Positions 5,158 to 15,124 of a stretch of 22,787 nucleotides of DNA are shown here, one piece after another. The notes below the pieces were generated by a model that saw nothing but the letters and a program-made list of their open reading frames with translations, did not search any database and had not been told where the DNA came from. Made by a program: the position numbers and the translations under genes. The DNA is from Candidatus Nanohalobium sp. (GTDB taxonomy: Archaea > Nanohalarchaeota > Nanosalinia > Nanosalinales > Nanosalinaceae): contig JBDGSM010000067.1 of assembly GCA_042217545.1 (NCBI GenBank), positions 1-22,787 of the forward strand, written 5' to 3'. The first letter of the stretch is position 1. Each line of letters starts with the position of its first letter.

Positions 5158-5454
5158 ATGCCTGGAATAGAACTGGAAAAGGTGAAGATCGACAAGCACG
5201 CGATCCCCTGGTTTGACCACAACCTGGATCGTGATAACATAATCCTTCGGAGCGATGGAAGAACGGAAGGCCTCAGAGAAACCTTTACGGTCATCAAGCT
5301 CTTCTACCTGGAGGAAAGAGAAATGCTCAAAGCCATCATGGAGGTCTTCAAAGACGAGAAGGAGAACGAGAGAAAGACATGGCTTATACCCAAGTCGCAG
5401 ATACTTTCTATGACCCGAGGAGGAGAAGTCCCCAGCACAGCAGAAGACGAATAA
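5158..5454 (+). CDS. Hypothetical protein, paralog of 6637-6929
   Basis: 98-aa ORF sharing KH.IP, DHN.DR, EGLRETF.VI.L.Y and WLIP.SQI with the downstream copy. Confidence 0.8.
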   Translation: MPGIELEKVKIDKHAIPWFDHNLDRDNIILRSDGRTEGLRETFTVIKLFYLEEREMLKAIMEVFKDEKENERKTWLIPKSQILSMTRGGEVPSTAEDE

Positions 5455-5622
5455 GGCCTCTAACTGCCCGCAAACTTCACAAAAATCATGCCATCTTTCT
5501 TCAACTCGTAATCAACCCCTGTTTCCAGATCATTGTAGTTGAAAGGCCTTTTAACCGGTTGCAGGGTCTTTTCCGGAAGTTCCGTTTCTGTGTATGGAAA
5601 GCTTAATAGCCTGCGGTTAGAA

Positions 5623-6075
5623 ATGTATACTAAAAATGTTTGTGATGTTGATGTTTGCGGTGCTGGCGGTGAGTGGCTGTGTAGCTGTAGAGGGAGGTTC
5701 TGACCCTGCTGAGACGGACGTGGCCGAGATCCGGGTGGAGAGGCCTCTCCGTCTTCAGGCGAGGAAGAAAATGTTACGGTCGTCACCTATACCTCTTCGG
5801 GTTTCTCCCCTGGTACTGTGAACGTTGAGGTGGGGGATACTGTCGTGTGGAGGTCTGAGACCTCGACTCCGATGTGGGTCGCTTCTGATCGTCATCCGGT
5901 CCACTCGAAGTATTCGGGTTCTTCGCTGAGCGAGCACTGTGGCCAGGGAGGAGGTTCCTCGTTCTATCAGTGTTCCTCTGGCGAGACGTACAGGTTCACT
6001 TTCGAAAAAGACGGTACCTGGGGTTATCACAACCATGAATACGCCTCCCATACTGGAAAGGTGGTCGTTGAGTGA
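5623..6075 (+). pseudogene. Cupredoxin/plastocyanin-like lipoprotein, frameshifted in this sequence
   Basis: Lipobox signal (MFVMLMFAVLAVSGC) is in one frame; cupredoxin body (VTYTSSGFSPGTVNVEVGDTVVW...FTFEKDGTWGYHNH...GKVVVE) is in another. Frame switch at about 5713-5730, with a probable extra A in AAAAA at 5632-5636. Confidence 0.7.
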
Positions 6076-6588
6076 ATCTCAGGGAGATGGATCCCGTGCT
6101 GTCCTGGGGTATAACAGTGACTCTTGCATATCTGTTTACGCCGTATGTAGGCCTGATGCCGGTGAAAGGAGTTCCTCTGAACTTTCAGATACTTCTCATG
6201 TGGACTTTGCTGATGATACCTCCTGTCTATCACTCGTACAGAGAGGCTCAAGGTCCTCTGGGCTGGAAGACGCTGAATACGGGCTGGAGCATCCTTATCG
6301 TTTTCGGTGTAGTCGGAAACTTCGCGGGGGGAGCTGTTTGCGACAGATCCGCAGATACTCACTTACTCGTACTATCATAAATGGCTGCTCGTTCCTGGCC
6401 TCGCTTTCGTCTACACTGCTTACAGGATGAACGATGAATCCAGAAAGATATACGGGGCTGCGGCCGTCCTCAACATCGCAGCAGCTCTGGCTCTGTTCGT
6501 TGCTCCAGGATTACAGGTCTACACGTTCCAGACTGCGGCACTGATCCAGGGTTTGCCGATGATCGCCGACTGGTATGTGCGGGGCTAA
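6072..6588 (+). pseudogene. Multi-TM membrane protein, frameshifted at a G6 run
   Basis: Removing one G from 6326-6331 continues the hydrophobic ORF (ELFATDPQILTYSYYHKWLLVPGLAFVYTAY...ADWYVRG) to TAA at 6586-6588. Confidence 0.7.
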
Positions 6589-6636
6589 GGGAGGGGAACC
6601 GTTTCCTTGATTAACCTGGCCGCTCATCAAAGAAGT

Positions 6637-6929
6637 ATGGTTGAGAGGAAAGAACGTGTAGAGCTGGATAAGGCTGTCGTTGAGAAACACTCGATACCTT
6701 GTACGATCACAATCAGGACAGAGGTGATATCGTTCTGGAAAGCTCCGGTAAGGTGGAAGGCCTGAGGGAGACTTTCAGCGTGATTGAACTGGCTTACAAC
6801 AGGGAAAATGAGATGCTTAGGGCTGTACTTGATGTTCTCGAGGAGGATGGCGACTCCGAGAGGACTGTATGGCTGATACCCCGTTCCCAGATCAAGTTCA
6901 TGAGCAGGGAACATGATGGAGGGGGGTAA
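6637..6929 (+). pseudogene. Paralog of 5158-5454, frameshifted at a Trp codon
   Basis: MVERKERVELDKAVVEKHSIP then TG TAC GAT (6700-6707), where the paralog has TGG TTT GAC; one missing G. Confidence 0.75.
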
Positions 6930-7008
6930 CTTAGAGGTGACCTCTCAAGCAGGTTTTTGAGGCCTTTCTCCAGGTAAATTTTTAACCAAGGCAACTGATT
7001 TAGTATGT

Positions 7009-7365
7009 ATGGCACACAAACTGTTGTCAATAGATGACTCTGGTTTCGAGAGGAAAGTACTGAGGAACGCATTGGAAGAGGATTACGAGTTCCTGGAGGC
7101 TGAGAACGCTGAGGAAGGCCTTGAAAAATTTGAGGAGGAAAGGCCTGACCTTGTATTGCTGGATATCAGGCTTCCGGACCGTGATGGTATAGATGTGCTG
7201 GAAGAACTGATGGATGAATACGATAATCCCAATGTAATTATGGTTTCAATTGTAAGGGAGGAAGAGACGAAGAACGAGGCTATGGATCTTGGTGCTGAGG
7301 CCTACGTGGAAAAACCTGTCGATGAAGACGATCTGCGTGAGACCGTCGAGGAAGTGCTGGAGTGA
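7009..7365 (+). CDS. cheY: Stand-alone receiver protein (CheY-like)
   Basis: IDD, DLVLLD, IMVS and KP are all intact; TTTTTAAC box about 25 nt upstream. Confidence 0.85.
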   Translation: MAHKLLSIDDSGFERKVLRNALEEDYEFLEAENAEEGLEKFEEERPDLVLLDIRLPDRDGIDVLEELMDEYDNPNVIMVSIVREEETKNEAMDLGAEAYVEKPVDEDDLRETVEEVLE

Positions 7366-7371
7366 TTTTCT

Positions 7372-7734
7372 GTGAAGGCTCTGGTAGTGGATGACTCCTC
7401 CTTTATGAGGAACATGATGAGTAATATCCTTGAGGACATGGATTTCGAGGAGATAGAGGAAGCGGACGATGGAAGTGTCGCTATCGAGAAGTTCGAGGAA
7501 GAGGATTTCGACCTCGTCACTCTGGATATAATAATGGATGATGTCGGAGGGATCGAGGCCCTGGAGGAGATCAAGGATATGGACGAGGATGCTGACGTGA
7601 TCATGGTCTCCGCAGTAGGCCAGGATGATATGGTGGATGAAGCGAAGGATAAAGGCGCAGAAACATTCATCAACAAGCCTTTCGATGAAGAGGACGTCAA
7701 GGATACCGTAACCGAACTTATACTTGATCAGTGA
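7372..7734 (+). CDS. cheY: Chemotaxis response regulator CheY
   Basis: VVDDSSFMR, DLVTLDIIM, VIMVSAVGQ, KPF; GTG start. Confidence 0.92.
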   Translation: MKALVVDDSSFMRNMMSNILEDMDFEEIEEADDGSVAIEKFEEEDFDLVTLDIIMDDVGGIEALEEIKDMDEDADVIMVSAVGQDDMVDEAKDKGAETFINKPFDEEDVKDTVTELILDQ

Positions 7735-8414
7735 GCCTGGGCCTTGTGGGAGGCCAGACCTCTCTTGGTGTCAAATGTATCTCCGCATTCATCGCATTCG
7801 AACGCCTCTTGGGAGTCATCTGAGGTCTCTTCATCGTTCTCATCCTCCTTGTCTTCATCTTCGTCCCTGGAGACTCTTTCACGGGCTTTCTGCTTGACCT
7901 CGTCCTCGGATACTTCTCCCGTGTCTTCTTCCTCTTCATCCTGTTCTTCGGACATCTCCTCGTTTATCTCCTTCATCTCAAGCGCCTCGCTGTCCTCCAG
8001 GCCGACGCTCAGATCCAGTATGATTATCATCCTGTCCTCAAGCACTCCCACAGCATCCACGTATTTCCTGTGGATTTCCTCCTCGACTATCTCGGGTGCA
8101 TCCTTCACCTTCTCTGATGAAAGCTTCATAACCTCTTTGACATCGTCCGCAAGAAGGCCTGCTGTAGCTTCCTCAAGTTCTATTATGACTATGTAGTTGT
8201 TCTCCTCGTTCCGGAGGTCAAACTTTTTTTCGAGGTCTATCAGAGGTACCGCCTGACCTCTAACGTTGGTTATGCCCTCGATAAAGTCGGGGACGTTCGG
8301 AACAGAAGTAACATCCTTCTCCTCCGCTCTTATTATCTCTTTCACGTTGTTAACATCGACCGCATACTCCTCGCCGTTAAGCACGAAAACGAATACCTGT
8401 CTTTCGTCAGTCAT
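7728..8414 (-). CDS. cheW: CheW fused to an acidic linker and C-terminal C2H2 zinc finger
   Basis: CheW core (VFVLNGEEYAVD..VKEI, VPNVPDFIEGITNVRG, GLLADDVKEV, MIIILDL), then a D/E-rich tail and CDECGDTFDTKRGLASHKAQAH; ATG 8414 preceded by GAGG. Confidence 0.92.
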   Translation of the reverse strand: MTDERQVFVFVLNGEEYAVDVNNVKEIIRAEEKDVTSVPNVPDFIEGITNVRGQAVPLIDLEKKFDLRNEENNYIVIIELEEATAGLLADDVKEVMKLSSEKVKDAPEIVEEEIHRKYVDAVGVLEDRMIIILDLSVGLEDSEALEMKEINEEMSEEQDEEEEDTGEVSEDEVKQKARERVSRDEDEDKEDENDEETSDDSQEAFECDECGDTFDTKRGLASHKAQAH

Positions 8415-8567
8415 GAAGGTAACCTCTCGACGGCTCTCCCAGGTTGTGCCGCCTATATCCACAAATAGTGAGCAGCGGTTAAAAAGCCTTCAGCCCTCCT
8501 TCTCAGGAAAGGTTTAAACATGAAGAACCAGAATCAGCAGATATAGGCTTTAAAATAACTGGAGAAG
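8415..8567. promoter_or_regulatory. Divergent cheW / cheB promoter region
   Basis: TTTTTAAC on the minus strand (8485-8478); TTTAAA boxes on the plus strand near 8513 and 8548. Confidence 0.5.
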
Positions 8568-9548
8568 ATGATGACAAGGATACTGATTGCACACCAGGAA
8601 TCAGGTACAAGGGACACTGTTTCGAGAAAGATAAGAGGGCTTGAAGGATTTCAGATTGTTGAAAAAGTCAGGAAAGCTGAAGATTTCTTCGAGAAGGTTA
8701 ACAAAGCAGATCCTGACGTCGTCGTTCTCGGCATGAAGTTCGAGAAGCTGTCAGGCCTTGACCTTCTGGAGAAGCTGAAGAGGACAGATCCGAGGCCCGT
8801 ACTGGCATTGGCTTCAGACGATGTTGAGAGGGAGGAGGCTGTGAGAGCTCTCTCCTACGGAGCTGTTGATGTCCTGGAACCGGATTACAGGCCTGATGAG
8901 GTGAGGTCTCTGCTTGAGGTTTCGCTGAAGGCTGATGAAATTGTTTCTGGTCGGGAGGTGGTCTCTGGCTCTGCTGAGTGTTCAGGAGATGAAGCTGCGG
9001 TTTTCATCGGGAGTTCGACTGGAGGGCCTGGTACCCTGGAGTTCATACTGAAGAACTTCCCTGATCGGCTTGATGCTCCTCTGTTCGTTGCCCAGCACAT
9101 GTCTGCGAGTTACACTGCCCTTTTCTCTGAGCGTATGGATAAGCTCTCCGAGTTCGAGGTGAAGGAGGCGGAGGATGGGGAAGAGGTCAGAGAAGGAATG
9201 GTGTACTTTGCTCCGGGAGACTGCGATATGAGGGTGGTAGAGGAAGACGATGAGAAGATGATCAAGCTATCTGAGCCTTCCGATACTACTTCTCCATCGA
9301 TCGATGTGCTTTTCAGGTCGGCGGCCGAGGTCTATGGGGATAAGGCCCTGGGTGTGGTCCTCACTGGAATGGGGAAGGATGGAGCTATAGGTTCGAGGTT
9401 TATCCGATCTGAAGGAGGAAAAGTATTTGTCCAGAACCGGGCTACCAGTAAGATATATGGGATGCCAAAACACGTAGTAAATCAGGGGGATGCAGACAGG
9501 ATACTTCCTCTTGAGAAGATCCCTGAGGAGATGGCGAGGTGTCTCTAG
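8568..9548 (+). CDS. cheB: Chemotaxis methylesterase CheB with degenerate receiver domain
   Basis: Catalytic motifs IGSSTGG, QHM and LTGMGKDG are intact; the N-terminal REC domain lacks the phospho-Asp. Confidence 0.93.
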   Translation: MMTRILIAHQESGTRDTVSRKIRGLEGFQIVEKVRKAEDFFEKVNKADPDVVVLGMKFEKLSGLDLLEKLKRTDPRPVLALASDDVEREEAVRALSYGAVDVLEPDYRPDEVRSLLEVSLKADEIVSGREVVSGSAECSGDEAAVFIGSSTGGPGTLEFILKNFPDRLDAPLFVAQHMSASYTALFSERMDKLSEFEVKEAEDGEEVREGMVYFAPGDCDMRVVEEDDEKMIKLSEPSDTTSPSIDVLFRSAAEVYGDKALGVVLTGMGKDGAIGSRFIRSEGGKVFVQNRATSKIYGMPKHVVNQGDADRILPLEKIPEEMARCL

Positions 9549-11126
9549 ATGTCCGATATAAACGAAGAAATGCTTGATATGTTCGTGGATGAGGCCAACG
9601 AGAAGATAGACGATCTCAACGATGGGATGCTCGAGTTCGAGGAGAATAAGAGTCAGGATGCCATCGAGGAGATGTTCAGGGCCTCACATACTATCAAGAG
9701 CTCGTCAGCTTCTCTTGGGTTCGACCAGATATCGGAACTGGCGCACAGGATGGAGGACGTGTTCGGAAAGTTCAGGGACGATGAGATTGATGCCTCACCT
9801 GAGGTCTTCGACCTTCTGTACGCCTCGGTGGATGCTCTCGAGGAGATGGTGGATGAAGCAGAAGAAAAGAAAGAGCAGCCGGATAAAGACGTTTCTGAAC
9901 TGATTGAAAACCTTGAAAACGCTAGGGACGGGAAGGAGATAGAGTTAGAACAGGAAGATGATACTGAAGAGGAGTTCGAGGAAGTCTCCGAGATAAAAGT
10001 TGATGTCGAGAGACTGGACAAGCTCATGAACCTGGTCGGGGAACTCCTGATCGTTGAAAAGAAGCTGAGAAGGCTGGGGGAAGATGAAGAAATGGACGAG
10101 TTCGGCTCCACACTCGATCAGCTCGAAAGGCTGGGTAAGGATATCCGACAGGAGGTATCTGAGGCAAGGATGATACCGGTCTCACAGGTGTTCGACAGGT
10201 TCCCCAGAACAGTCCGAGATCTCAGCAGGAGGACCGACAAGGAGATCGACTTCGAGATGGAGGGCGAAGACCTCAGGATGGACAGAACAATAATCGAGGA
10301 ACTGGGCGAACCGATAATACATGCCATCCGGAATGCGGTAGATCACGGCATAGAACCCCCAGAAGAGAGGAAAGAAAAGGGAAAGCCTGAGGCCGGAAAG
10401 ATCAAGCTCAAGGCGGAAAGAGAGGGAAGCGAAGCGATAATATCGGTCGAAGACGACGGCAGAGGAGTAGATACAGATAAAGTGGTTGAGAAAGCGAAGG
10501 AAGAAGGAGTCATCGATAGTGGCGAAGGCCTTTCTAGGAAGGAAAAGCTGATGCTCCTTTTTGATTCAGGTATGTCGACGAACGACGAAGTAACGGAGCT
10601 TTCTGGCCGAGGAGTGGGCCTCAGCGTGATGAAGAAGACTGCAGAGGACTTGAGAGGGTCATACGATATCGAGACTGAAGAAGGAGAAGGTACAAGAGTC
10701 GAGATGAGACTTCCGCTTTCTCTGGCGGTTGTCAGGTGTTTCCTTGTCAGGATAGGAGACTCCAGGTACGGTCTTCCTATCGACTCTATTCTGAGGGTTC
10801 TTGAAAGAGAGGAAACTGATGTGAAGAGGATAGAGGATAGAGAAGTATTTAAATATGAGGAATCGGAGATACCGTTGATCGATTTATCTCAGAAGCTTGA
10901 TGAGGGTTCAAATTCCTCTGAGGAAGGGAGTATAGTCGTTGTGGAGAAGGGGAACACTAGAGCAGGCCTTCTGGTGGATGAGATAGAGGATGTACAGGAT
11001 TTCGTGACAAAGGACCTTGATCTTCTTGATGTCGAGGGGGCGGCAGGTGTTTCGATGCTTTCCGACGGCAACCCGATGCTTATATTGGATTTCAATCAAT
11101 TACTCGGTGAGGAAAATGGAAATTGA
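9549..11126 (+). CDS. cheA: Chemotaxis histidine kinase CheA, P2 domain apparently absent
   Basis: FRASHTIKSS (P1 His), LDKLMNLVGEL (P3), HAIRNAVDHG / DDGRG / SGRGVGL (P4), C-terminal CheW-like P5; only 525 aa. Confidence 0.96.
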   Translation: MSDINEEMLDMFVDEANEKIDDLNDGMLEFEENKSQDAIEEMFRASHTIKSSSASLGFDQISELAHRMEDVFGKFRDDEIDASPEVFDLLYASVDALEEMVDEAEEKKEQPDKDVSELIENLENARDGKEIELEQEDDTEEEFEEVSEIKVDVERLDKLMNLVGELLIVEKKLRRLGEDEEMDEFGSTLDQLERLGKDIRQEVSEARMIPVSQVFDRFPRTVRDLSRRTDKEIDFEMEGEDLRMDRTIIEELGEPIIHAIRNAVDHGIEPPEERKEKGKPEAGKIKLKAEREGSEAIISVEDDGRGVDTDKVVEKAKEEGVIDSGEGLSRKEKLMLLFDSGMSTNDEVTELSGRGVGLSVMKKTAEDLRGSYDIETEEGEGTRVEMRLPLSLAVVRCFLVRIGDSRYGLPIDSILRVLEREETDVKRIEDREVFKYEESEIPLIDLSQKLDEGSNSSEEGSIVVVEKGNTRAGLLVDEIEDVQDFVTKDLDLLDVEGAAGVSMLSDGNPMLILDFNQLLGEENGN

Positions 11127-11730
11127 TGATGAGCAGCTGGATAAGCTTCGTGAGATAGGTAATATAGGTGCCGGGAATGCTTCGAATGCACTTTCTCAGA
11201 TGACTGATGAAAAGATAGATATCGGATTCCCGGACATAGATGCGATGAGGATAGAGGATATCCCTGAGAGGATAGGGAAGCGCTCGAAAATACACACTCT
11301 GATCCGTGTAGAGGTCAAGGTGGAAAGAGAAGGTGAAAAAGTATATCTTGGGACTCTGATGCTGATACTTGATATGGAATCTGCTCACGTCCTGGCTGAG
11401 CATCTTCTGGGTAAAGAGGTTGAAGGCGGCCAGCAGCTAACATCTCAGGAAGAATCCGCTTTGAAAGAAACAGGAAATATACTCACCGGCGCAACTCTTT
11501 CAGCAATGACAGAATGGGTCGATCTCAAGCTTCAGGAGGAGGTGCCGGACATCAAGACAGACATGCTGGGTGCAGTGATGGATGAGATACTTCTCAAGAT
11601 GGCCAGAACTGAGGATGAGGCTCTGGTTTTCCAGACAGATTTCAGCTTCAGAGAAGAGCTGAACTCCTACTTTATTTTTCTGTTCAGCAAGAATGGTAGA
11701 GAGCTTATACTGCAGGAACTCTCTGTTTGA
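11116..11730 (+). CDS. cheC: Chemotaxis phosphatase CheC
   Basis: Two ExxN motifs (REIGN, KETGN); ATG 11116 overlaps the end of cheA. Confidence 0.92.
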   Translation: MEIDDEQLDKLREIGNIGAGNASNALSQMTDEKIDIGFPDIDAMRIEDIPERIGKRSKIHTLIRVEVKVEREGEKVYLGTLMLILDMESAHVLAEHLLGKEVEGGQQLTSQEESALKETGNILTGATLSAMTEWVDLKLQEEVPDIKTDMLGAVMDEILLKMARTEDEALVFQTDFSFREELNSYFIFLFSKNGRELILQELSV

Positions 11731-11744
11731 ACGGAGTGAGGCAT

Positions 11745-12206
11745 ATGGGACGAAACAAGAATGTAAACATGGGAGAGTACAAGATAGGTACAGGAAAGGA
11801 AGTACTCACTGCCATGGGGCTCGGGAGTTGCGTCGCAACGTGTCTATATGATCCTGAAGATAAAAGGGCAGGCCTGGCGCACGTCATGCTCCCCGAAGAG
11901 GAAGAAGGAGATTCATCGAAGCACGCTGATATCCTGATAAATTCTTTGATCGACGATCTAAATGATAAGGGCTCGGATACTTCTGATCTGGAGGCCAGGA
12001 TATATGGAGGAGCTTCAATGTTCGACAATTCCTTTGATATCGGTAAGAGGAACGTTGAATCGGTGGAGGAAATCCTTTCACGGAAAGGTATTCCGATAAG
12101 GGAAGAGGATACCGGGGGAGAAAAGGGAAGAGCTATCTGGTTCAACAGCGGAACAGGAAACGTAGTAGTTCGTAAGTCATTCGAGGGGAACAAGGAACAC
12201 AGATAA
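11745..12206 (+). CDS. cheD: Chemoreceptor glutamine deamidase CheD
   Basis: GLGSCV, AGLAHVMLP, GGASMF, IGKRN, EDTGG..GR. Confidence 0.95.
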   Translation: MGRNKNVNMGEYKIGTGKEVLTAMGLGSCVATCLYDPEDKRAGLAHVMLPEEEEGDSSKHADILINSLIDDLNDKGSDTSDLEARIYGGASMFDNSFDIGKRNVESVEEILSRKGIPIREEDTGGEKGRAIWFNSGTGNVVVRKSFEGNKEHR

Positions 12207-12303
12207 CGTGTTGGTTTTTAATACAGAGGACCCCAAATTGAAGATAGGAAGTTGTGCAACGCATCTGAAAAAACTGTTATGAGAAAGATGTCGCTTCCCG
12301 GAC

Positions 12304-14286
12304 GTGTTCAATGCTATGCTACAAGACCTGAAGGCCTGGATAGATGACCAATCGTTTACTGTAAAAATCGGTATAGGTATGATAATACTCTCTGCGTTTA
12401 TAGGAGTGTCAGCCTACAACGTCTACGATGCAACAAGCCAGATGAACAGGGAACAGATGAGAAACACTCTTTCCACACATGCCAAGTATGCCCAAGGCCT
12501 TTATGAGGCCAATGATTCTCAGGCCTTTCAGGATAAAGTGAAGGGGATAGGGGCTAAAGGCACGGAGTTAACTGTTCTGAACCTCAACGGCGAACCAGTT
12601 GATTCTGGTTCGGAACCAGGTTTTCTGGCAGAAAAGGGTTTCCAGGAGGCTCTAAATCAGGCGAAGACCGGTTCAGATGGTTCTCAGACCTTCAGTGTGA
12701 ATACCGGGTCTGGGACTGTTCTGGGGGCTGTAAACGTTGATCCCGAGTCTGAAAGAGTGTTCGTGGCAACTGCGCCTGAATCAGCGGCTTATGCATCGAT
12801 GAATGTCGTGAATACCAGTGTCATTCAGGCCATGGTGATCACAGGTATCGGTATAGTTCTTGTGCTGTTCGGGTTCTACTTCTACATGATGATACCGATG
12901 AACAGGCTCACTGAGAAGGCGGATACGGTAGCCGAGGGCAACGTCTCGGAGGTCGAGTTCGAAGCAGATAGAGACGATGAAATAGGAGATATCGAGAAGG
13001 CCTTCGCTGGTATACATCAGTTCATGCAGGATTTCTCGGCTCAGGCAGATGCTCTGGCGGAGCAGGACTTTGATTCTGAGGCCTTTGACCGTGAGGTGCC
13101 TGGTGAGCTTGGTGATACTCTTGATGATCTGAAGAAGGATCTTCAGCAACTGTTTGATGAGCTTGAGGAGGAGAAGAATAGGGCTCAGGAACGTACTGCG
13201 TCTCTTCAGGAGAAAGCTGCGGAGTTCAGCCAGGTCATGGAGGAAGCTCGCTCTGGGGATTTGACTGTCCGCGTTGAGCCTGAAAGTGAAAGTGAAGCGA
13301 TGACTTCAGTAGGTAAATCTATCAATACCTTGCTTGACGAGGTTGAGAGCATCATTATGAGGATAAGAGGCTTCGCGGAGGAGGTCTCCTCTGCAAGTCA
13401 GCAGCTTGATGCTAGTTCTGAACAGGTTGAGGAATCCAGTGAGGAGATTAATGAGTCGATGGAGGAGATCAGTTCAGGTATGCAGCAGCAGACTGCCACT
13501 CTTTCAGAGGCTGAGGAGCAGATGCAGGAGCTTTCGGCTGCTGTTCAGCAGATAGCTTCGTCTGCCGAGTCCCTTGCCAATAAGTCACAGAGGATATCTG
13601 AGACCGGTGAGCAGGGACGTGAAGTTTCAAAGGAGGCTATGGAAGAGATGGATGAGATGGATGACAGGAGTGAGGAAGTCACTGAGAAGGTCAAGGAACT
13701 TGACGAACAGATGGAGCAGCTCGAGGAGATCGTCGAGATGGTATCCGAGATAGCTGAGGAAACGGATAACCTGGCGCTGAACGCTTCTGTGGAAGCTGCG
13801 AGGGCTGGTGAAGCAGGTGAAGGCTTCGCAGTCGTCGCGGATGAGGTCAAGAACCTGGCTGAAGAAGCTGCGGATTCGACTGAAGAGATGCAGCAGCTAA
13901 TCAATGAAGTGCAGGAGTCAACTTCTGAGACTGTTGAAGAAGTTGAAGGTATGAGGCAGTCTGTAGAGGAAGGTAAGGAATCTATCGAGAACAGTCTTAG
14001 CGCTGTAGACGAGATCGCTGATCAGATCGAGGAAGCTAACGCCAGCGTACAGGAGGTGGATAGTGCGGTCGATCAACAGGCGGAATCCTCAGAGAAAGTG
14101 CTCGATGAAGTACAGGAGGTATCCAGTGTCAGTGAAGAGGCCTCAGAGGAGGCACAGGAGGTCGCGAGCTCGCTCAATGAACAGACAACAGCCATCAAGG
14201 AGATCTCTGAAAGCGCCGACACGATGTCGGATAAGGCCGTCAAACTCAACGAGATGCTGGAGGAATTAGAGGTAAGAGACAAGTAG
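12304..14286 (+). CDS. Methyl-accepting chemotaxis protein (2 TM, small sensor domain, HAMP domains)
   Basis: Two hydrophobic helices, HAMP signature RDDEIG, hairpin tip [38 protein letters not shown]. Start could alternatively be ATG 12316. Confidence 0.96.
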
Positions 14287-14295
14287 AGGCGATAT

Positions 14296-14913
14296 ATGAT
14301 GGAACCAGAACTTACGGACAGACAGAAAGATGAGCTAAGAGAATTAGGTAATGTTGGAGCCGGAAGAGCCTCCAGGTATCTTTCAGATCTCGTGGATCAC
14401 CGTGTGGATATCAGCATACCTGAAGTTGAGGTGGTGAATCTTGAGGAAGAGGATGTCACAAGAAAGATGTTCCAGGAAGATCCTGATCAGAAAGTTACAG
14501 CCGTAGTGATACCGCTGAAAGACGTGGGAGGCCTTATAGTCTTCATCTTCGAGCAGGACGATTACCAGAACTTCCTGACACAGTGGAGAGGTAAGGATGG
14601 TGAAGAAGGCCCTCAGAAAAACTTTATGGAGGTCAGCAAGGAGGTAGGAGATTTCTACATAGAGGCACTTCAGAACCTCCTGGATATCGATCTAGAGACC
14701 GAGGAACCGAAACTTATGACTCTGGACATGAACGCACTTACCATTCACACTACCTCCGGCATAAACAGCAGCTGTGGGCCGGATCGTAACTGTGTGCTTG
14801 CGATAAACACGGATATGGAGATAGCTGACTTGAAGAGCGGTATAACGATGCTACTTGAGCATGATCAGGTCGAAAAGATCCTCGACTCCATGAAAGAGCA
14901 GCTGCAGGAATGA
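14296..14913 (+). CDS. cheC: Second, divergent CheC-family protein
   Basis: D.LRELGNVGAG.AS..LS N-terminus; the second site reads KEVGD. Confidence 0.82.
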   Translation: MMEPELTDRQKDELRELGNVGAGRASRYLSDLVDHRVDISIPEVEVVNLEEEDVTRKMFQEDPDQKVTAVVIPLKDVGGLIVFIFEQDDYQNFLTQWRGKDGEEGPQKNFMEVSKEVGDFYIEALQNLLDIDLETEEPKLMTLDMNALTIHTTSGINSSCGPDRNCVLAINTDMEIADLKSGITMLLEHDQVEKILDSMKEQLQE

Positions 14914-14953
14914 AACCGCTCCCAACAGTTCAAAGACGTCATCCCCTCCTCTT

Positions 14954-14971
14954 TCTTCCTTCTCAGGAAGA
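14954..14971. terminator. Hairpin between convergent cheC2 and tRNA-Asn
   Basis: TCTTCCT-TCTC-AGGAAGA within a pyrimidine-rich tract. Confidence 0.4.
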
Positions 14972-14984
14972 GATAGAACTAACA

Positions 14985-15124
14985 CGCCCAAGCCAGGATT
15001 CGAACCTGGGACCACCACGTAACTGTACATGAAGGCCTTTTCCCGGGCCTTCCGCATATCCTTCCTCACCGTGAGGAAGGACGAGTTTAACAGCGTGGCG
15101 CTCTACCTACTGAGCTACTTGGGC
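14985..15124 (-). tRNA. tRNA-Asn (GTT) with a 67-nt intron at 37/38 (intron 15021-15087)
   Basis: Exon 1 GCCCAAG TA GCTC AGTAGGTA GAGC G CCACG CT GTT A; exon 2 A CGTGG TGGTC CCAGG TTCGAAT CCTGG CTTGGGC G. Bulge-helix-bulge with central helix CTGT/ACAG and bulges TA^A and TT^A. Confidence 0.93.

Follow-up and report, generated by a model that had tools for sequence, protein, structure and literature searches.

A mobile nine-gene chemosensory cassette without a detectable archaellum output in a nanohaloarchaeon

Chemotaxis in archaea is generally considered to act through CheF and the archaellum, and the way in which DPANN symbionts locate their hosts is still an open question. The window analyzed here, a stretch of 22,787 nucleotides from Candidatus Nanohalobium sp. 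(contig JBDGSM010000067.1, our contig C64 of the 1.03-Mb, 92%-complete genome G000), raises the question of what a chemosensory pathway acts on where neither CheF nor the archaellum can be detected. Between positions 7009 and 14913 it carries nine open reading frames (ORFs), arranged cheY-cheY><cheW<>cheB-cheA-cheC-cheD-mcp-cheC. The gene order, orientations and intact frames given in the initial annotation were confirmed, and every ORF contains the expected Pfam domain, that of cheC2 falling below the Pfam cut-off and the protein matching NF041093 at E 2e-24. In a phylum where CheF and a switch complex escape detection, an intact pathway of nine genes must act on some other target. Judging from sequence, we estimate at about 0.85 the probability that the cluster encodes a functional, archaellum-independent derivative of the F1 class of chemosensory systems; its signal target is possibly the pili, for finding or holding a host.

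To define what is missing, we searched the 70 genomes of the phylum, 28 of which are at least 90% complete. CheF, ArlD/E and archaellins scoring above the cut-off were found in none of the 70, and the positive controls were detected in each case. ArlI did not exceed its cut-off in any of ten genomes tested, including all nine with che genes, and a two-query tblastn search of G000 did not recover ArlH and gave one weak KaiC match. The archaellum search covered ArlD/E, ArlH, ArlI, ArlJ and archaellins, with no separate search for ArlC, ArlF and ArlG. A full-length CheR was present in two of the 70 genomes (G009 and G010, both among the nine with che genes), directly upstream of cheB; the other 14 of the 16 CheR matches covered only short parts of the model and were left out, G011 is uninformative because its contig ends at the position upstream of cheB, and CheR was not found in G000. 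The lack of cheR, cheF and archaellum genes first noted for the window therefore extends to the profile searches of the whole 92%-complete genome and, for CheF and ArlD/E, to all 70. G000 has three receiver domains in total, all inside the che cluster, so that there is no downstream response regulator. Without CheF or a switch complex, phosphorylated CheY (CheY~P) needs another target.

The proteins of the cluster have kept their active sites. Catalytic residues are invariant in all aligned Che copies, which are 32–71% identical to the G000 proteins; the roles given to the CheB receiver and triad residues and to the CheA, CheY and CheC residues and motifs are the usual ones. CheA consists of Hpt, dimerisation, HATPase and CheW domains (Pfam) and has no P2 domain: a short linker was seen in all seven aligned copies, and PF07194 was absent from all 31 nanohaloarchaeal CheA clusters. 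The phospho-His and ATP-box residues are invariant in the same seven copies, as are the active-site residues across about 30 clusters spanning 47–86% identity. In the receiver of CheB, the two paired acidic residues, the Asp that would accept the phosphate and the conserved Lys are missing, while the Ser-His-Asp triad of the protein is intact; all seven aligned copies show this pseudo-receiver together with an invariant triad. The available text of PMC12632262 knows of no functional study of archaeal pseudo-receivers. The two-CheY/two-CheC layout is common to the che clusters of the phylum. Both CheYs keep the phosphorylation residues, CheY2 being of the canonical F1 type and CheY1 of a conserved atypical type, and in the aligned copies the second motif is kept in every CheC1 and the first in every CheC2. 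The C2H2 tail of CheW, which is below the Pfam cut-off, occurred in five of the 12 copies examined, a subclade that includes G000. A similar C2H2 motif opens two unrelated acidic proteins of G000 (C10:14688-15641 and C37:6708-7418). All three alterations taken initially as signs of a rewired pathway, namely the P2-less CheA, the pseudo-receiver of CheB and the C2H2 motif of CheW, are thus present, but the first two are common to the che clusters of the phylum rather than peculiar to G000.

The receptor differs from its counterparts elsewhere in its adaptation sites. Its signalling domain aligns without gaps over 289 residues to 2ch7 (TM1143), which we take to be a 44H receptor, and belongs to the 44H type on that basis. 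The sensor is Cache-like by Atlas features and by its structural model, and by Pfam in the orthologue from G036; a homologue search with the sensor region matched only itself. Adaptation sites were scored as pattern matches to a methylation-site consensus, among receptors that are related to one another. The nanohaloarchaeal sites are almost without exception encoded as Gln; EE was found at two of 39 sites in 12 nanohaloarchaeal receptors versus 38 of 55 in 31 other receptors from the loci fetched, and all four consensus sites of the G000 receptor are QQ. Each che genome has one receptor, except G041 with two (fragments in G051 and G013 were not counted). The receptors are soluble in seven of the nine che genomes and of the membrane Cache type in G000, G036 and the metagenome locus L259. 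Receptors are interchangeable between clusters, and their replacement by new sensor types suggests that the pathway is used. Two unusual forms were also seen: a receptor in which the signalling domain comes first and a solute-binding-protein domain lies at the C-terminus (L262:7676-10144), and, beside cheB and next to a soluble receptor in G038, a dCache-HAMP membrane protein without a signalling domain (L019:11903-13273), possibly one part of a split receptor.

Taken together, these features would allow the following scheme. A small extracellular solute, perhaps released by the host, would bind the Cache domain and modulate CheA via CheW; in the P2-less CheA the CheYs would take phosphate directly from P1, and CheC1 and CheC2 would dephosphorylate CheY~P. 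Because CheR is missing, CheB cannot be phosphorylated and the sites are encoded as Gln, covalent tuning could proceed only one way, CheB and CheD deamidating the Gln sites once. Reversible adaptation would depend on CheC–CheD binding driven by CheY~P, as in Bacillus (PMC7289035). In the most speculative step, CheY~P may act on a module made up of KaiC, a fusion of KaiC with an MglA-type GTPase, and a Roadblock (MglB-like) protein; this GTPase module may in turn switch the type IV pilus machinery, which would serve movement on surfaces or attachment to the host, in the way known from Frz-MglAB of Myxococcus. We give the whole chain, including the step from GTPase to pilus, somewhat less than even odds.

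The candidate output module came from gene neighborhoods. At four of nine metagenome loci found with a CheY1 alignment (L260–L263), a KaiC-type gene is the immediate, divergently transcribed neighbor of cheY1; after it come a fusion that joins an inactive KaiC-like domain to a small GTPase (visible in L261–L263) and a Roadblock gene (its start visible in L263). In G051 the same module stands beside the receptor fragment of a decayed che remnant. The GTPase lacks the G3 Asp, with FGTPGQ invariant in 14 of 14 copies, and a Roadblock gene lies downstream; a missing G3 Asp and Roadblock coupling are the hallmarks of MglA (PMC4316618), and the fusion, which carries both, is predicted to be of the MglA type. 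G000 has the module on another contig (C7:112-2942; KaiC, KaiC, KaiC-like/MglA-type GTPase fusion and a Roadblock gene truncated where the contig stops). Each genome has several nearly identical copies of Roadblock genes. The fusion is present in 21 of the 70 genomes, comprising eight of the nine with che genes versus 13 of the 61 others, and, within the family of G000 (f1), four of four versus five of 46. Fisher values for these counts overstate the association, since kin genomes are not independent. In a tree of 29 genomes built from two markers, the f1 genera radiate as a star, and the GTPase trait needs six changes on it; the three che-bearing genera all fall within the five GTPase-bearing genera of 21, which would happen by chance with a probability of 0.008 if genera were independent. 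A predicted complex of the G036 proteins, CheY1 together with KaiC, Roadblock and the GTPase fusion, scored 0.00, a result that speaks neither for nor against an interaction. As for the pili, a locus on C3 of G000 combines a PilB-type ATPase with four pilin-like and two TadC-type genes, and C5 encodes another ATPase; the neighbor of a pilus ATPase in G010 is a KaiC homologue. KaiC and Roadblock genes have been described as neighbors of archaeal type IV pilus loci (PMC4858521), and kaiC is found in nanohaloarchaeal pilus clusters (PMC9563170).

Several observations weigh against this scheme or parts of it. The che-bearing genomes are all incomplete (71–92%). The GTPase module lies outside the window and adjoins the che cluster in none of the nine genome loci; it occurs without che genes in 13 genomes, including the complete genome G040 and seven of the ten of family f4, and it was not found in the che-bearing G019 (75% complete). 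L260–L263 and G051 are probably one lineage, so the adjacency of KaiC and cheY1 may represent a single event. An unrelated family of proteins of about 95 amino acids (aa) co-occurs with the che genes equally well (nine of nine che genomes versus 13 of 61), and the overlap of che and GTPase genes may therefore only mark signalling-rich genomes. Regarding adaptation, the receptors of the CheR-bearing G009 and G010 share the Gln-rich sites, and the 12 receptors fall in about three lineages. Finally, the appendages of a cultured nanohaloarchaeon have been described as archaella-like (PMC7443923).

The ~95-aa family itself is present in one to nine copies in 22 of the 70 genomes; clustering at 50% gives it 457 relatives, and its genes are often neighbors of che, V4R, FIST or Roadblock genes. 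No Pfam match was obtained for 61 members; the structural model is confident and mostly helical, with only weak matches, to the helical part of H-NOX and to death folds (best Z 6.3, root-mean-square deviation 4.0, 87 residues aligned).

Where does the pathway come from? CheA was placed within the archaeal F1 radiation in two trees (values of the Shimodaira–Hasegawa-like approximate likelihood ratio test, SH-aLRT, 97 and 84). The nanohaloarchaeal CheAs form one clade (SH-aLRT 99) among the archaeal F1 sequences and outside the Halobacteria clade, so the gene is not a recent gift from a halobacterial host. Its 30 nearest relatives form a clade labelled Nanohaloarchaea, the nearest named CheAs being labelled Ca. 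Nanohaloarchaea and Ca. Nanohalobium, and the best NCBIfam model is CheA_Halo, below its cut-off. After this clade, the next-best matches are P2-less CheAs named Altiarchaeales and Aenigmarchaeota. The sister group was less stable: a Halobacteria sister group had an SH-aLRT of 83–90 with two halobacterial sequences and vanished with 12. In approximately unbiased tests (p-AU), grouping with the Halobacteria clade was not rejected (p-AU 0.77; constrained tree 12.5 log units above a quick free search), nor was grouping with the Altiarchaeales/Aenigmarchaeota clade (p-AU 0.945; 33.7 log units above). P2-less CheAs were also encountered in two Halobacteriota genomes (L245:4001-6123 in G117 and L213 in G219), the G117 copy directly behind an H-NOX gene and with no other che genes nearby.

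F1 CheA typically carries a P2 domain, and the Tfp and ACF classes are recognized by a CheA fused to a receiver domain, by multiple Hpt domains and by class-specific hidden Markov models. The G000 CheA has a single Hpt and no receiver, which fits neither Tfp nor ACF. Besides the position of CheA, the presence of CheC and CheD, the cheB-cheA-cheC-cheD order and the 44H-like receptor bear out the F1 ancestry proposed at the outset; what F1 systems have and this one does not is P2 on CheA, and CheR together with a phosphorylatable CheB.

The host was correctly recognized as a nanohaloarchaeon, since the Top6B and eL18 proteins encoded in the window cluster at 90% identity with proteins assigned by name to Nanohaloarchaea archaea SG9 and SW_7_46_7. 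G000 belongs to family f1, with 50 of the 70 genomes. We infer that f1 corresponds to Nanosalinaceae, and the host to a Nanosalinaceae-type nanohaloarchaeon, because PMC9765267 treats SG9 as belonging to that family (Table S4 set). In another genome of the phylum (G065; L166-L167), Top6B has a long in-frame insertion (open frame of 1,569 aa), probably an intein.

Within the phylum, CheA was detected in nine of the 70 genomes, four of 50 in f1, three of ten in f4 and two of eight in f5 (a weak match in G024, E 3.7e-4 and 26% identity over 112 residues, was dropped), and in its genomic setting the che cluster behaves as a mobile cassette beside tRNA-Asn. The complete genome G040, of the same genus and without CheA, has the same genes on both sides, and the slot between the tRNA-Asn 3′ end and a small upstream ORF holds an unrelated FAD-type oxidoreductase. 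In L259, from another species, the che cluster follows the same left flank as in G000. In G041, again of the same genus, a differently ordered cluster lies elsewhere, and its CheA is 55% identical to that of G000 versus 81–88% for three housekeeping proteins; a tree joining the CheAs of G000, L259 and G041 was rejected (p-AU 5e-8). The clusters of the other che genomes have different neighbors. No att-like repeat was found between the cluster ends, and no integrase was seen. The G041 cluster (L018:10207-16999) adjoins hydrogenase-like and heterodisulfide-reductase-type genes, as judged from ORF starts only, and on a low-GC archaeal contig (L264:9998-11364) a CheY1-type gene and cheB stand alone behind cdc6 and PolD genes, and the 20 kb retrieved there contain no cheA.

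At the left edge of the cluster, a small ORF that is single in G040 and L259 is present in two copies (5158-5454 and 6699-6929), and 5466-5546 is a remnant of a 201-aa gene that comes after cheC2 in L259; as read from these sequences, they appear to be traces of duplication and deletion. The small ORFs were considered as output candidates and rejected, as they occur in the che-less G040 and were not found in any of five other genomes tested, four of them che-bearing. A sigma-70 promoter scan, a method unsuited to archaea, gave hits at chance level.

The hand count of 16 AGGCCT copies in 7009-14913 proved exact. The window has 67 copies versus 6.2 expected, and AGGCCT is the commonest hexamer of G000, present on all contigs (3,699 sites, about 3.6/kb). 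Its density is 2.0/kb in the cluster versus 3.4/kb in the rest of the window, and among 263 overlapping genome windows of the same length the cluster falls at the 4th percentile; in the G036 che cluster the density is 0.4/kb. The cluster is thus only partly adapted to the host signature, and has been resident for some time yet can still be distinguished. The view that it is not a very recent acquisition stands insofar as the signature has partly been taken on, but vertical inheritance would not hold for a mobile cassette. This signature is specific to certain lineages: per 19.9 kb, G040, G058 and G052 have 74, 91 and 43 sites, but G046, G032 and G050 have one or two. Such abundance is reminiscent of the highly iterated palindromes of cyanobacteria.

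Other explanations have to be weighed against a functional pathway acting on pili. The same sensory core could have a non-pilus output through another partner, such as attachment or fusion proteins, a life-cycle switch or metabolism, comparable to bacterial ACF-class systems. The loss of P2 and of the motor adaptor would fit this idea, as would a single, mostly soluble receptor per genome, which is ill suited to gradient sensing, the presence of pili in genomes without che genes, and the V4R, FIST and ~95-aa genes that recur next to the clusters in f4 and f5. However, V4R and FIST neighbors were not found in G000, and next to the cluster there is no further recurrent gene for a receiver, a transcription factor or a cyclase; we consider this alternative unlikely, though a serious one. 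It is rather unlikely, too, that the cells perform ordinary taxis, either with a highly divergent archaellum-like motor or by CheY binding directly to the pilus ATPase, the adaptor having diverged beyond the reach of current models. In its favor, CheY2 is of the canonical F1 type, pilin-like proteins gave weak archaellin-profile scores in 18 of the 70 genomes, and archaella-like filaments and a FlaG-FlaI-FlaJ-FlaJ2 operon have been reported for Ca. Nanohalobium constans (PMC7443923). The C3 pilus locus of G000 matches the 'FlaI, FlaJ, FlaJ2' layout of that operon but fails the archaellum models: its ATPase scores 394 against a cut-off of 550, and there are two half-size TadC-type genes instead of one ArlJ, in addition to the lack of detectable ArlH, ArlD/E and CheF.

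We regard as improbable that the cluster is a relic, in which loss of the motor came first and the sensory genes linger on, or wander from genome to genome, with no useful output. The patchy distribution, the loss of cheR, the empty site in G040 and the decayed remnant in G051 are what a relic would leave, but intact ORFs and invariant active-site residues in genomes of about 1 Mb under strong reduction, and receptors exchanged for new sensor types, argue against it. Finally, an assembly or binning artefact that joined a halobacterial che operon to a nanohaloarchaeal contig, toward which only the loose grouping of the receptor signalling domain with one halobacterial transducer could point, is refuted by the nanohaloarchaeal CheA clade outside Halobacteria, the AGGCCT sites, the shared site in L259 and the even depth.

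The contig is accordingly not chimeric across the cluster, a possibility that had been raised at the start. Both flanks are collinear with G040, the second species (L259) has the cluster at the same left flank, and depth is even across the cluster in two salt-lake metagenome runs that contain the DNA and may be its source; no RNA run containing the cluster was listed. One of these runs also contained a contig joint skipping 5428-14984, with the support of only 29 bases, which may stem from another organism.

The functional, archaellum-independent F1 derivative may be part of something wider, although we hold this extension to be doubtful: DPANN symbionts would share a chemosensory subclass with P2-less CheA, dead-receiver CheB, Gln-locked receptors and two CheYs, in which CheF and the archaellum gave way to a GTPase switch of the KaiC-MglA type acting on type IV pili; it would serve to find or commit to a host, and the cassette would be swapped between lineages with exchangeable receptors. 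If true, this would be the first case in archaea of a chemosensory pathway that is connected to pili and not to the rotary motor. The pathway is small enough for reconstitution and offers a natural test of methylation-free adaptation, and its single receptor would name the cue that the cells follow. The features of the locus are compiled in Table 1.

Table 1. Genes of the chemosensory cluster, the adjoining tRNA and members of the ~95-aa family
Feature	Position	Strand	Remarks
cheY1	7009..7365	+	Lineage-specific single-domain response regulator, signature LSI[ED]DSxFERK; D10, D52, S80, K102 intact
cheY2	7372..7734	+	Canonical F1-type CheY; best solved relatives 6er7 and 1tmy CheY
cheW	7728..8414	-	Acidic tail and C-terminal C2H2 motif
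cheB	8568..9548	+	Pseudo-receiver and methylesterase/deamidase domain; S150, H177, D271 invariant in 7/7 copies
cheA	9549..11126	+	Without P2; H47, N262, D302 and G-box invariant in 7/7 copies
cheC1 phosphatase	11116..11730	+	Both active-site motifs in the G000 copy
cheD receptor deamidase	11727..12206	+	GLGSC and HVMLP motifs; ATG at 11745 may be the start
Chemoreceptor (mcp)	12304..14286	+	Membrane-anchored; single Cache-like sensor, HAMP, long (44H-like) signalling domain; sole receptor in genome
cheC2	14296..14913	+	Divergent paralogue; first active-site motif only
tRNA-Asn(GTT)	14985..15124	-	Intron of ~67 nucleotides; cluster abuts tRNA 3′ end
~95-aa family members	L023:4577-4861; G000 C59:8228-8494, C41:3459-3776		

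The intron of the tRNA-Asn(GTT) gene holds a long hairpin; an intron-bearing tRNA is also present in G040, and the gene was missed by ARAGORN with default settings.

The bare presence of che genes in this phylum is already known from two other families. Zhao et al. 2022 (PMC9765267) described cheAWCDBY both in Ca. Nanoanaerosalinaceae and in Ca. Nanohalalkaliarchaeaceae, which are sediment families, and suggested host seeking; they reported none in 14 Nanosalinaceae genomes, for which their table shows one lone cheA assignment, and cheF, cheR, archaell and flagell appear nowhere in the main text. Che pathways, initially described as not commonly reported in this group, and the idea of host finding have thus been published before; a rewired pathway with a non-motility output would agree with the failure to find the known motor-coupling parts. 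A 2022 survey (PMC9680633) lists DPANN as without a chemotaxis system, a 2016 census (PMC4858521) states that nothing indicates a control of other type IV pili by chemotaxis, and PMC13747009 links F1 to archaella while noting CheF-less Chloroflexota with F1; the available text of PMC7443923, PMC10266531 and PMC13195033 does not mention chemotaxis. In the literature searched, which mostly did not extend to subscription papers, we found no description of an archaeal pathway without CheF and archaellum or of a link to a KaiC-MglA fusion. New here are the presence in Nanosalinaceae as a mobile cassette, the architecture, the loss of the whole known output arm, the Gln-encoded adaptation sites and the candidate GTPase link.

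Compared with the clusters of Zhao et al., those described here share the phylum, the gene set and the host-seeking idea, and the f4 and f5 clusters lie in the same CheA clade; unlike in that report, the large family f1 carries the cluster in four of 50 genomes, and cheR, cheF, receptors, domain loss, mobility and output are not treated in its searched text and the table rows seen. With the archaeal F1 system of Halobacterium, Haloferax, Methanococcus and Pyrococcus (PMC7289035, PMC9126983), the cassette has in common the cheB-cheA-cheC-cheD order, two CheCs, CheD, a long receptor, an F1-type CheY2 and the branching of CheA, whereas it is without CheF, ArlD/E, archaellum and P2, its CheB is unphosphorylatable, CheR is mostly lost, and it has an extra atypical CheY1 and a single receptor. 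All components of the Bacillus subtilis CheC-CheD-CheY~P loop are present here too (PMC7289035), offering methylation-independent adaptation. In Bacillus, however, this loop works beside CheR/CheB and CheV, whereas here it would be the sole reversible one. As in the Frz-MglA/MglB system of Myxococcus, one cell combines a chemosensory pathway that has more than one CheY-type domain, an MglA-type GTPase paired with Roadblock, and type IV pili; unlike there, the GTPase is fused to an inactive KaiC-like domain, there is no RomR-like receiver, and the coupling is deduced from neighborhood and co-occurrence only. Frz is, moreover, not of the F1 class. P2-less CheAs are also found in Altiarchaeales and Aenigmarchaeota (P0032, P0036 and P0309); these are proteins of the same four domains and 524–550 aa, for which a common origin with the nanohaloarchaeal CheAs is compatible with the tree tests (p-AU 0.945).

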